Assembly (NCBI GenBank): GCA_900752335.1
Contig: CAADUZ010000001.1
Coordinates: 1,772-65,771, forward strand
DNA from: Clostridia bacterium
GTDB lineage: Bacteria > Bacillota > Clostridia > TANB77 > CAG-508
Direction: 5' to 3'
Length of the DNA stretch: 64,000 nucleotides
Below the pieces are notes generated by a model. The model was not told the DNA's origin. It made no database searches and worked only from the letters and a program-made list of their open reading frames with translations. Shown one piece after another: positions 24,523 to 26,659 of this stretch. The translations under genes were made by a program, and so were the position numbers. The stretch's first letter is position 1; each line of letters opens with the position of its first letter.

Positions 24523-25071
24523 TCATATTATACTATCTTGCAATTTCATTGCTTGTTTTATAAGTTCTTTTATTTCATACATATTATATTCATATTTTAC
24601 TTCTATCCTATATAATGGAATATTTACTTGTTTAAATAATTGATTTATAAATTCGTCTCTTTTTTTTACATTTTCTCTTTTATGACTATAATCGTCTAAT
24701 TCTATACAAGCTACTATTCCACAATTTTTATTATTTACTATTGTATAGTCTATACTTCGTGATTTAATTTTATTTCTATCAACATTATTATTGTCTTTAA
24801 CTTGTATTATTCTTTCCAAATTAACTTGTGAGAAAATTGATAAATTTAATTCATCAGTTATTTCTTTCAATTTTCTATAGAATATTAATTCTGTTCTAGT
24901 CATTACATATCCCTTGGTGGTATAGTTAGACAAACTATTATCTGTTTTACTTTGTTTACCATTATTTCGTGGTGTGGCTAATATTATAATAAATATTATA
25001 ATCGGAGTCATTACTATTCCAAATAATATTATAAAGAGTATAAATGAAAATATAAAATATATAATCCCCAT
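24523..25071 (-). CDS. Membrane-anchored DUF2726-like (restriction-endonuclease-fold) protein
   Basis: N-terminal TM, then RTELIFYRKL...VNLERII...DYTIV...ACIELDDYSH, recalled as the DUF2726 pattern. Confidence 0.55.
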   Translation of the reverse strand: MGIIYFIFSFILFIILFGIVMTPIIIFIIILATPRNNGKQSKTDNSLSNYTTKGYVMTRTELIFYRKLKEITDELNLSIFSQVNLERIIQVKDNNNVDRNKIKSRSIDYTIVNNKNCGIVACIELDDYSHKRENVKKRDEFINQLFKQVNIPLYRIEVKYEYNMYEIKELIKQAMKLQDSII

Positions 25072-25114
25072 TTTTTTACCTTCCTTTGTTTATTACTTTA
25101 TTCATACATATAAT

Positions 25115-25309
25115 TTATTTTATTAACTCATATCTTTTAAATATAGTAATTATCATGCTATATACTAATTTCTTTCCCAATAATTCTCTAAATTTTGTTG
25201 TTTTATTTCTGCCTTCATTTCTCAACTTTTCTAATTCTTTTCCTAAATTGTCATATTCTGTTAATATATCTGCAAGTGCTTTTTCAAATCTTTCTAATCT
25301 ATCCATCAT
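25115..25309 (-). CDS. Small coiled-coil protein (64 aa), first gene of the DUF2726 operon
   Basis: An AAGGAGA RBS lies 5 nt upstream of the ATG. Heptad-like LERFEKALADILTEYDNLGKELEKL. Confidence 0.4.
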   Translation of the reverse strand: MMDRLERFEKALADILTEYDNLGKELEKLRNEGRNKTTKFRELLGKKLVYSMIITIFKRYELIK

Positions 25310-25541
25310 TTATTCTCCTTATATTAGTAAACTGTACTTATTTAACTATTTTGTAAAATATTATATATGAAAACTAATTTAATTTCAATATCATATGCGA
25401 AGTGGTTAAAGTATTAAATGTAGATTGTCAAATATATGTCACACTTTATCGACAAATATACAATAAAACATGCAATAAAATACAAACTTTTGTTTACTTT
25501 TATCCTATAACGTGCTATACTTTAGAAAGTGAGGTGAGACT

Positions 25542-26027
25542 ATGAATTATGAAATTCACAACAATATTGTAGAAGCCGAAAATTTATTAAGTAGTATACA
25601 TAATGTTGATGCAATTCAATTTTCAGAATGGATTAGAGAAAAGTCAAATTTAAGATATAATGGTAATCTACCTAAATTTCCAATATATAATAATTTTATC
25701 TACTGGTGTAATCTTGGTATAAATATTGGAAGTGAACAAAATAAATTAAGACCTGTTTTAATATTAAGAAGCTCTAAAAATTCTCCTATCTGTACTATTC
25801 TTCCTCTAACAACTAAAAGATTACAAGATGGTTTTTGGTTTCATATTGATTTAGAAGAAATCGACTCTACTGTTTTAGTTGAGCAATTAAAGGTTGTTAG
25901 TAAAATAAGAATTACAAATCCTTATAGAAAAAAGGGAAGTTTAGTTACAATTTCATTAGATGATTGGAATAAAATTAATTCACAACTTGAAGAGCTATAT
26001 AGGTTAAGACCATTAAAAGATGAATAA
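25542..26027 (+). CDS. MazF/PemK-like endoribonuclease toxin with an approximately 50-aa N-terminal extension
   Basis: FIYWCNLGINIGSEQNKLRPVLILRS, then ILPLTTK and LVEQLKVVSKIRI, match the PemK/MazF core pattern (GxIYW..G.E..K.RPVLIL). GAGGTGA RBS. Confidence 0.6.
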   Translation: MNYEIHNNIVEAENLLSSIHNVDAIQFSEWIREKSNLRYNGNLPKFPIYNNFIYWCNLGINIGSEQNKLRPVLILRSSKNSPICTILPLTTKRLQDGFWFHIDLEEIDSTVLVEQLKVVSKIRITNPYRKKGSLVTISLDDWNKINSQLEELYRLRPLKDE

Positions 26028-26042
26028 AATTCCGAATTCTGC

Positions 26043-26072
26043 TTGACTTTCTGTCATTAAATAGTTTATAAT
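26043..26072 (+). promoter_or_regulatory. Near-consensus SigA promoter in front of structured-RNA unit 1
   Basis: TTGACT (26043-26048), an 18-nt spacer, then TATAAT (26067-26072). Confidence 0.45.
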
Positions 26073-26078
26073 TAAGTC

Positions 26079-26152
26079 AATAAAACATTAGTGTCCGTTC
26101 TGAAAAGAACGTTAATCATTATAATCCGATAGTCGAAAGACTATCGTTTTTT
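26079..26152 (+). ncRNA. Candidate small RNA, unit 1 (two hairpins plus U-tract)
   Basis: ACATTAGTGTC, stem CGTTC/GAACG, TTAATCATTATAATC, stem CGATAGTC-GAAA-GACTATCG, then TTTTTT. It is a paralog of unit 2. Confidence 0.45.
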
Positions 26153-26216
26153 ATTAACTTCATTCTGCCCACGGATAATTATGCATATAATTTAGAATTC
26201 TCTATATACTATTATT

Positions 26217-26299
26217 ACATTAGTGTCCATAGTTTTTATACTATGTTAGTCATTAATATCGGAGAAAATCTAAAATATTGATTTTCTCCATTTTATTTT
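26217..26299 (+). ncRNA. Candidate small RNA, unit 2 (paralog of unit 1)
   Basis: ACATTAGTGTC, stem CATAGT/ACTATG, TTAGTCATTAATATC, stem GGAGAAAATC-TAAAATATT-GATTTTCTCC, then ATTTTATTTT. Confidence 0.4.
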
Positions 26300-26333
26300 C
26301 TGTGGTTATACCTCAACTATTGACATTGAGACC

Positions 26334-26364
26334 AAAAAAATAGTACCTCATAGGGTACTTTTTT
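26334..26364 (-). terminator. Terminator of the tRNA operon (A-run/hairpin/T-run, bidirectional type)
   Basis: AAAAAAAT-AGTACC-TCATAG-GGTACT-TTTTTTT lies directly after the tRNA-Phe 3' end. Confidence 0.5.
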
Positions 26365-26440
26365 TGGTGCCTCGAACGGGAATCGAACCAGTGACACAGG
26401 GATTTTCAGTCCCTTGCTCTACCAACTGAGCTATCGAGGC
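26365..26440 (-). tRNA. tRNA-Phe (anticodon GAA), CCA encoded
   Basis: The reverse complement GCCTCGATAGCTCAGTTGGTAGAGCAAGGGACTGAAAATCCCT...TCGAGGCACCA folds as a cloverleaf. There is one T-C mismatch in the T stem. Confidence 0.93.
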
Positions 26441-26485
26441 GTATGTGTAATATTTTCTATATATCCAATTTTGCTAATATAAAAA

Positions 26486-26562
26486 TGGCGACCCGGAACG
26501 GGCTCGAACCGTCGACCTCTAGCGTGACAGGCTAGCGTTCTAACCAACTGAACTACCGGGCC
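26486..26562 (-). tRNA. tRNA-Asp (anticodon GTC), CCA encoded
   Basis: The reverse complement is GGCCCGGTAGTTCAGTTGGTTAGAACGCTAGCCTGTCACGCTAGAGGTCGACGGTTCGAGCCCGTTCCGGGTCGCCA. Confidence 0.95.
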
Positions 26563-26583
26563 GTATAGGAAATAATAAAAAAA

Positions 26584-26659
26584 TGGTGGGCGCAATAGGG
26601 CTCGAACCTATGACCTCCTGCTTGTAAGGCAGATGCTCTCCCAGCTGAGCTATGCGCCC
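26584..26659 (-). tRNA. tRNA-Val (anticodon TAC), CCA encoded
   Basis: The reverse complement is GGGCGCATAGCTCAGCTGGGAGAGCATCTGCCTTACAAGCAGGAGGTCATAGGTTCGAGCCCTATTGCGCCCACCA. Confidence 0.95.

Follow-up and report, generated by a model that had tools for sequence, protein, structure and literature searches.

What keeps a MazF-type ribonuclease in check when no antitoxin gene is encoded beside it? This question is raised by a gene at 25542..26027 on the plus strand of the stretch of Clostridia bacterium contig CAADUZ010000001.1 analysed here (64 kb, hereafter the window). MazF is a textbook type II toxin, and solitary mazF genes are, as we see the field, usually dismissed as orphans or mis-annotations. 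Directly downstream of this gene lie two tandem units, U1 (26085-26152) and U2 (26217-26299), which belong to a new RNA family linked, across Clostridia, to a distinct subfamily of MazF with an N-terminal extension. Comparison of related loci suggests that these RNAs probably neutralise the toxin by some route. That they do so as RNA antitoxins, by direct sequestration of the adjacent toxin in a type III-like module, is the explanation favoured here, with slightly better than even confidence.

The toxin and its two adjoining RNA units

The gene encodes a 161-aa protein of the MazF/PemK endoribonuclease toxin family, recognised by the Pfam model PemK_toxin over residues 53-152 (E 4.5e-15). Its closest sequence relatives in the PDB are B. 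anthracis MoxT, B. subtilis EndoA and S. aureus MazF, and a Foldseek search with an AlphaFold2 model (59-sequence alignment, pLDDT 88.9) placed S. aureus and B. subtilis MazF on top, with a TM score of about 0.75 on the target. Arg70 and Thr90 of the toxin do not vary in any alignment made; they correspond to Arg25 and Thr48 of B. subtilis MazF, which we take to be the catalytic pair. As modelled, the open reading frame (ORF) 25542-26027 is a true MazF/PemK-fold RNase with its catalytic Arg/Thr intact. The model also predicts an N-terminal extension of ~50 aa, comprising two helices (residues 3-40), that is absent from canonical MazF. CptN was a remote match in the fold search (rank 43, TM 0.46-0.48), the ToxN Pfam model gave no match at E<=1, and no ToxN, CptN or TenpN chain was retrieved by the PDB sequence search at E<=1. 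The subfamily is narrow: 1.84 billion representatives contain 16 clusters at E<1e-30 and 80 at E<1e-10. NCBI names relatives "type II toxin-antitoxin system PemK/MazF family toxin".

The original prediction had described this toxin as antitoxin-less, and the description stands. No conserved protein antitoxin gene adjoins 25542-26027, no conserved ORF was found beside the toxin or anywhere in the module formed by toxin and RNA units, and the neighbours differ in every context. A 47-aa ORF at 25402-25545 was rejected as a hidden antitoxin because it overlaps the promoter and is not conserved. PADLOC returned no match for the toxin. Five distant MazF-like proteins (L210, L212, L213, L214 and L215; 218-232 aa) share a GYNIGSEQNKxRP core and carry N-terminal extensions of ~120 aa, with no obvious antitoxin gene upstream; just downstream of L213 and L214, a TTGACA promoter is followed by a structured region that ends in a terminator.

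Both units were read directly from the plus strand of the window. U1 opens with a single-stranded segment, segA (ACATTAGTGTCC in DNA letters, 26085-26096), followed by stem 1 (CGTTCT/AGAACG, 6 bp with a GAAA loop, 26096-26111), a UAA linker, a second single-stranded segment, segB (TCATTATAATCC, 26116-26127), an 8-bp terminator stem (CGATAGTC-GAAA-GACTATCG, 26127-26146) and a run of six T (U6 in the RNA, 26147-26152). The predicted small RNA (sRNA) is ~74 nt long (26079..26152, +) and has an AAUAAA leader. U2 consists of a segA with the same letters as that of U1 (26217-26228), a stem (CATAGT/ACTATG, 26228-26245), a UUA linker, segB (GTCATTAATATC, 26249-26260), a 10-bp terminator hairpin (GGAGAAAATC/GATTTTCTCC, 26261-26289) and a U-rich tail (26290-26299), giving a predicted sRNA of about 80-85 nt (26214..26299, +). 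The 11-mer ACATTAGTGTC occurs twice in the window, both times in the units, a count that alone is not above chance. Coordinates, hairpins and shared single-stranded segments are thus as originally claimed on re-reading, but the anatomy had to be corrected. What had been presented as one conserved pair of linkers per unit is two copies of the motif [A/U]CAUU-N4-UCC, each with a hairpin immediately 3' of it, i.e., two motif-plus-hairpin sub-repeats. As RNA, the copies read ACAUUAGUGUCC (26085-26096) and UCAUUAUAAUCC (26116-26127) in U1, and ACAUUAGUGUCC and the partial motif GUCAUUAAUAUC in U2.

Covariation indicates that these elements act as RNA. The different yet perfectly paired stems of U1 and U2 had been taken as a sign of selection on RNA structure; differences between paralogues alone are no proof of this, but the covariation among orthologues is real. 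In 50 distinct orthologues, 99.3% of the cells of U1 stem 1 are paired and four of its six pairs have changed on both sides, with variants that include CGUUCU/AGAACG, CAUCCC/GGGAUG, CAUCUC/GAGAUG, CGUUUC/GAAACG and CGUUGC/GCAACG. In the U1 terminator, pairing is complete (100%), one pair covaries and the stem sequence is conserved, and slid controls for the U1 helices all collapse. The U2 stem is 100% paired in 67 distinct orthologues and has one covarying pair (CG 57, UA 7, UG 3), while the U2 terminator appears generic, since unrelated hairpins replace it in several genomes. Against dinucleotide shuffles, U1 folds with a z of -4.5 and U2 with a z of -7.5, and none of 200 shuffles was as good. 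Read on the opposite strand, at least 37 U-G cells of the helices would turn into A-C mismatches; along with promoters and U-tracts, they identify the plus strand as the functional one, in agreement with the terminators originally assigned to that strand, of which that of U1 was also called there. A closing helix between segA and segB (P1, UAGUG/CAUUA), predicted by ViennaRNA, was rejected: across 50 orthologues it lacks compensatory changes and is broken in 14 cells.

In the window, covariance models built from orthologues detect two copies only, U1 (model R1, 98 bits, E 5e-19) and U2 (model R2, 81.5 bits, E 5.6e-14), and each model also detects the sister unit (E 5e-4 and 1.7e-4). The units match no Rfam family: Rfam 15 at the gathering score yielded three tRNAs and no family for U1 or U2 over the whole window, nothing relevant was found at E<=10 over 25300-26400, and six related loci of other clades gave no family at E<=0.1. 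The claimed lack of coding potential was borne out as well, as a single mechanical 21-aa ORF (26278-26343) is the only one of at least 20 aa to touch the units.

U1 is preceded by a near-consensus sigma-A promoter, TTGACT-18-TATAAT (26043..26072, +), which had already been proposed and which scores 11/12 in a promoter scan. It sits inside the 57-nt gap 3' of the toxin stop codon and is kept in orthologous modules though the spacer varies; equivalent promoters precede the RNA in distant clades. A candidate U2 promoter was read from the sequence at 26180..26210 (+), with a -35-like ATGCAT (26180-26185) and a -10 TATACT (26205-26210). In a profile of 84 native U2 upstream regions, this promoter takes the form TTGCAT-17/18-TATACT in most orthologues, directly past the U1 terminator, although its support appears weaker than that of the U1 promoter. 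The toxin promoter region (25483..25521, +; 9/12 in the scan, with TG) contains a -35 TTTACT (25493-25498), a 17-nt spacer and an extended -10 TGcTATACT (25513-25521). Among 42 modules in unrelated contexts, this block is the sole conserved upstream sequence, and conservation begins ~85 nt before the ATG. Its -35 is overlapped by a conserved palindrome, CAAACTTTTGTTTAC (25483-25497), whose arms (CAAAC-TTTT-GTTTAC) pair perfectly and which is kept in nearly all modules of the main clade (70-100% toxin identity). This palindrome could be the operator for a repressor, possibly the N-terminal helices of the toxin or a toxin-RNA complex. Between the toxin gene and the U1 terminator lies no other terminator, so the toxin mRNA should run through U1.

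Two kinds of variation in unit arrangement were also observed. In eight hybrids (L030, L040, L043, L054, L057, L072, L119 and L023), the U1 promoter and leader are fused to a U2 body, having arisen by recombination or deletion at the shared ACATTAGTGTCC; most lie at toxin-less loci, and L023 (1987-2050) shows such a deletion beside an intact toxin. Some modules carry an additional hairpin-rich insert of ~110-150 nt between U1 and U2, starting near UAGGAAA (L066 6716-6830; L126 5040-5140; L137 4225-4335, identical to L185; L169 1100-1260). In L066 and L126 the insert ends in GUGGCGAAGCCAC plus a U-tract, and it may represent a third, unrelated structured RNA.

Co-inheritance of toxin and RNA

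Linkage between toxin and RNA persists where everything around them changes. Homologues with 81-84% identity reside in unrelated neighbourhoods (sigma factor/peptidase, Thg1-like, rubrerythrin, MFS/APH genes), and all of them have both units directly downstream. The inherited unit is a module of ~850 bp without a second protein gene, because upstream conservation starts only ~85 nt before the toxin ATG. When metagenomes were scanned with a protein pattern for the toxin, the U1 model matched 56 of the 70 loci found, 45-70 nt past the stop codon and down to 49% protein identity. The 14 unmatched loci comprise three without downstream sequence, three with frameshifted or truncated toxins (L182, L186 and L195), L206, in which the RNA lies upstream, and the remote homologues L207 and L210-L215. 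Every intact close homologue thus has the RNA in these sequences, and the RNA-less close copies are pseudogenes.

The converse scan, with an RNA pattern and one genome per species, returned at least 119 stretches, of which at least 96 were real units and the rest hairpin-less chance matches; it demanded an exact segA, so that the apparent conservation of this segment is biased. Among the matches listed (96 loci), the toxin is intact at 47, where it ends ~60 nt ahead of U1, reduced to a remnant at 12 and absent at 18; the other 19 are uninformative, being severed by the end of a contig or locus. The toxin has therefore been lost at 30 of the 77 informative loci among these matches. Intact close homologues of the toxin thus always come with the RNA, while the RNA often outlives the toxin, an asymmetry predicted for a toxin/antitoxin pair. 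All real units listed come from uncultured Clostridia of human, rabbit, chicken, goat and mouse guts; the window itself is part of the metagenome-assembled genome of an uncultured gut member of this class. The units are accordingly tightly linked to homologues of 25542-26027 and are not scattered repeats, one of the outcomes on which the original prediction depended.

The motif copies change together from clade to clade. In segA and segB, respectively, N4 is AGUG and AUAA in the main clade, AGAG and AAAU at 61-65% toxin identity, and GUAA in both, with identical copies, at 48-54% identity. In L206 a single unit (CAUUAGUUUUC/CAUUAGGUUUC) stands upstream of the toxin, in the order promoter, RNA, terminator, toxin that is canonical for type III systems. 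A search seeded with the L206 protein reached further clades, all of the same design. Desulforamulus ferrireducens, a cultured organism with a complete genome (CP019698.1, locus at 145288-148221), has two downstream units, the first of which contains AUUAGUAUUCC twice; P0294, a very common gut protein, and its relative P0298 are followed by a single unit, which carries CAUCAAUUUUCC and CAUCAAUUAUCC; and a Defluviitaleaceae metagenome-assembled genome (MAG) and P0274 have one unit each. These distant RNAs have their own TTGAC(A/T/C)-17/18-TATA(A/C/T)T promoters and terminators and fold significantly. Motif copies inside one RNA are identical at 8/11 to 11/11 positions and are closer to each other than to copies of other clades, while the hairpins of the sub-repeats (~30-37 nt) differ. 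Such concerted copies would fit two equivalent binding sites, e.g., on both protomers of a MazF dimer. The remote homologue L207 (1232-2300; 179 aa, 48% identity) is arranged differently: an Xre-type helix-turn-helix ORF overlaps its start codon, and downstream lies a promoter-led structured element of another build, which contains AGUCAUUUGUUUAUCC. Protein and RNA may be combined at this locus, in a mixed or transitional arrangement.

A phage or plasmid origin of the module was rejected, since a pattern scan of viral contigs gave two chance matches only; blastn against plasmid and phage collections found nothing. In the window, a bidirectional terminator (26342-26359) and a tRNA-Phe/Asp/Val cluster on the minus strand (26365-26659) follow directly after U2. 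In many other genomes, too, modules adjoin tRNA 3' ends (L009 2763/3832, L021-L026, L049, L072, L201 and L218), and in L009 a 13-bp direct repeat, TTGGTGGGCAGGG, copied from the 3' end of a tRNA, borders the module on both sides. Such positions point to insertion of the module at tRNA genes, though no integrase is present inside its ~850 bp. A second conserved sequence, TGGTGCCAACGAAGTAGTTATCTACAACTTTTT followed by GGCTCT..GATTGATACAAATA, stands beside modules in several unrelated MAGs, upstream in L017 (1-60), L047 and L090 and downstream in L037 and L040; it could be a degenerate tRNA-like attachment site or another repeat. Some MAGs contain more than one locus (L050 and L062 in CASEIZ, L037 and L122 in CALXQF, L060 and L125 in CAMMHE), where an intact module may, for example, be accompanied by a locus with RNA only or a remnant. 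These MAGs, and the frequent ending of contigs inside units, point to several copies per genome. Between dapF and the module of the window, at 24523-25309 (-), are genes for a DUF2726 protein (182 aa, with an N-terminal membrane segment) and a 64-aa coiled-coil-like product, which, with the module, make up a small island adjoining the tRNA cluster; PADLOC matched neither of the two.

Proposed sequestration of the toxin and its alternatives

How would the RNAs restrain the toxin? Direct binding is suggested by the architecture of the motifs, their concerted change and the precedent of type III systems. In this explanation, the strong U1 promoter would keep the RNA in excess over the toxin, and each motif-plus-hairpin would act as a pseudo-substrate that fills one of the RNA-binding grooves of the toxin dimer, so that one RNA would bind one dimer and block the cleavage of cellular RNA. 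If transcription stopped, for instance during phage attack or upon loss of the module, the labile RNA would decay and the RNase would be freed. Read-through toxin mRNA would carry one antitoxin copy in its 3' untranslated region (UTR), which may permit autoregulation.

Several points weigh against sequestration. Nearly all sequences are MAGs, and the evidence is comparative throughout. The type III antitoxins known so far consist of tandem, nearly identical repeats located upstream and folded as pseudoknots, whereas here short motifs with variable hairpins are mostly downstream and separately transcribed. Moreover, the toxin is, by sequence, outside the ToxN, CptN and TenpN families, and its N-terminal helical extension has no role in the model. 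The Xre-type ORF of L207 indicates that protein partners exist somewhere in the wider family. Finally, the complementarity of U1 to the toxin ORF is above background in the main clade, where an antisense component is possible.

An antisense mode resembling type I systems would have U1 pair with toxin codons ~26-31 (UUUUCAGAAUGGAC against GUCCGUUCUGAAAA), with the GNRA-type loop starting the contact, and would act by blocking translation or by RNase III cleavage. In the window the duplex reaches -26.6 kcal/mol over 14 bp, including one G-U, and is matched by 1 of 150 dinucleotide shuffles and by no other segment of the window among 143 compared. In 20 of 26 main-clade modules this site again ranks first, and the main clade has a median z of -1.9, with 19 of 46 modules below -2 (61 non-redundant modules overall). 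However, this excess is gone where stem 1 differs, namely in the 61-65% and 48-54% clades and in L131 (z 0 to +2), and changes within the site are uncompensated: synonymous UCU/UCA variation at a Ser codon freely breaks a pair. Pairing would also require the opening of a stable, covarying hairpin, and U2 has no excess complementarity to the toxin mRNA. Pairing of the invariant motifs with their own toxin mRNA was considered and rejected as well, since no cognate-specific match rose above shuffles. Because the excess is confined to the main clade, its changes are uncompensated and the motifs have no target in their own mRNA, antisense action would be minor and possibly clade-specific, and we consider it unlikely as the principal mechanism.

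Equally doubtful is the view that U1 and U2 are trans-acting regulatory sRNAs, or substrates processed by the toxin, with targets elsewhere and merely co-carried on the module. The conserved single-stranded segments lie at the 5' end, as in seed-bearing sRNAs, and the CAU...UCC repeats could be anti-start-codon and anti-Shine-Dalgarno seeds, given that the complement of the motif, GGA-N5-AUG, reads like a generic ribosome-binding region. RNA-only loci, 30 of the 77 mentioned above, point to a possible value of the RNA without the toxin. The original prediction had left the choice between such seed-bearing sRNAs and an RNA antitoxin or decoy for the antitoxin-less toxin, and the latter is favoured here because the RNA accompanies every intact close homologue, RNA-less copies are pseudogenes, RNA-only loci are common and linkage outlasts the changed gene order of L206. 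Independent trans-acting sRNAs would leave this linkage unexplained, as well as the parallel change of motif and toxin clade in hosts of distant taxa.

A role confined to cis is improbable. In such a case U1 would serve as the terminator of the toxin mRNA and as a stability or autoregulatory element in its 3'-UTR, with U2 as a duplicated back-up terminator. The toxin mRNA must indeed end at the U1 hairpin, there being no other terminator, and the U1 terminator stem is highly conserved. Nevertheless, a near-consensus promoter stands directly before U1 in every clade, U2 has its own -10 past a strong terminator, the RNA of L206 is upstream of the toxin, and units persist after deletion of the toxin; in addition, a plain terminator needs no pair of conserved 11-12-nt single-stranded motifs. 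Action at the DNA level, as recombination sites, ends of small mobile elements or repeats of the REP (repetitive extragenic palindrome) or MITE (miniature inverted-repeat transposable element) kind whose palindromes mimic RNA hairpins, is very improbable, for although modules often adjoin tRNA genes, L009 has its 13-bp direct repeat of a tRNA 3' end and contigs often break within units, the units are strand-specific in promoters, U-tracts and U-G cells, occur in two copies only in the window at a fixed position relative to the toxin, and are absent from the phage and plasmid collections searched.

The modules may represent an undescribed and widespread class of toxin-antitoxin system with an RNA antitoxin, a proposal to which we give an even chance. 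This class would combine a true MazF/PemK RNase with separate sRNAs, each holding two pseudo-substrate motif-plus-hairpin modules, one per dimer protomer, that co-evolve with the toxin clade by clade; its members would be found in uncultured gut Clostridia, in Defluviitaleaceae and in the cultivable Desulforamulus ferrireducens. Literature searches found no paper on a MazF/PemK toxin with an RNA antitoxin. The class would account for a number of "antitoxin-less" toxins of gut Clostridia and add a new RNA family with a simple recognition code, CAUU-N4-UCC plus hairpin, and the ~850-bp module would be a candidate system of phage defence by abortive infection in gut Firmicutes. Since cultured D. 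ferrireducens carries the module, the hypothesis can be tested directly.

Comparison with known systems

The closest analogy outside toxin-antitoxin systems may be the CsrB/RsmZ RNAs that act on CsrA. These, too, carry short single-stranded motif copies beside hairpins on a small, strongly transcribed RNA, a likeness that would suit titration of an RNA-binding protein dimer but is an analogy of mechanism only. The motif is CAUU-N4-UCC rather than GGA, the partner protein is another one, each RNA has two copies, and the RNA is encoded beside its presumed partner on a mobile module. Type I systems with a trans-encoded sRNA, such as TisB/IstR-1, similarly place a small RNA with its own promoter beside the toxin gene, and limited complementarity exists in the main clade. 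The toxin, however, appears to be a 161-aa soluble RNase instead of a small hydrophobic membrane peptide, and the complementarity of 8-14 bp is restricted to one clade and uncompensated.

With type II MazEF/PemIK systems (B. subtilis EndoA-EndoAI, S. aureus MazEF), the toxin shares its fold, its Arg/Thr dyad and its best sequence and structure matches. It differs in its N-terminal helical extension of ~50 aa and in having linked RNA genes instead of an upstream mazE/pemI-type gene. The module cannot be classed as type II, because no protein antitoxin is present.

Type III systems, represented by ToxIN of Pectobacterium, CptIN of Eubacterium rectale and Coprococcus and TenpIN of Photorhabdus, likewise pair a small Kid/MazF-related endoribonuclease (here of predicted activity) with an adjacent non-coding RNA and no protein antitoxin. 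They also have repeated elements, here ~30-37 nt, each with a short conserved sequence, and a terminator between RNA and toxin, which is the arrangement of L206. CptIN, moreover, also occurs in gut Firmicutes, and CptN has 155 aa, compared with 161 aa and extra helices in the present toxin. On the other hand, this toxin is a bona fide Pfam PemK/MazF protein and not ToxN/AbiQ, CptN or TenpN; its RNA is mostly downstream, as two separately promoted and terminated sRNAs in place of one upstream array; and a motif with a variable hairpin replaces the near-identical, pseudoknot-forming repeats of about 34-45 nt. The module would thus work most like a type III system, from which it departs in toxin family and, except in L206, in gene order, with a loose correspondence in its repeats. 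If this holds, control of the type III kind would no longer be restricted to three small toxin families but would include the MazF family proper, and an evolutionary link between type II and type III systems would emerge.

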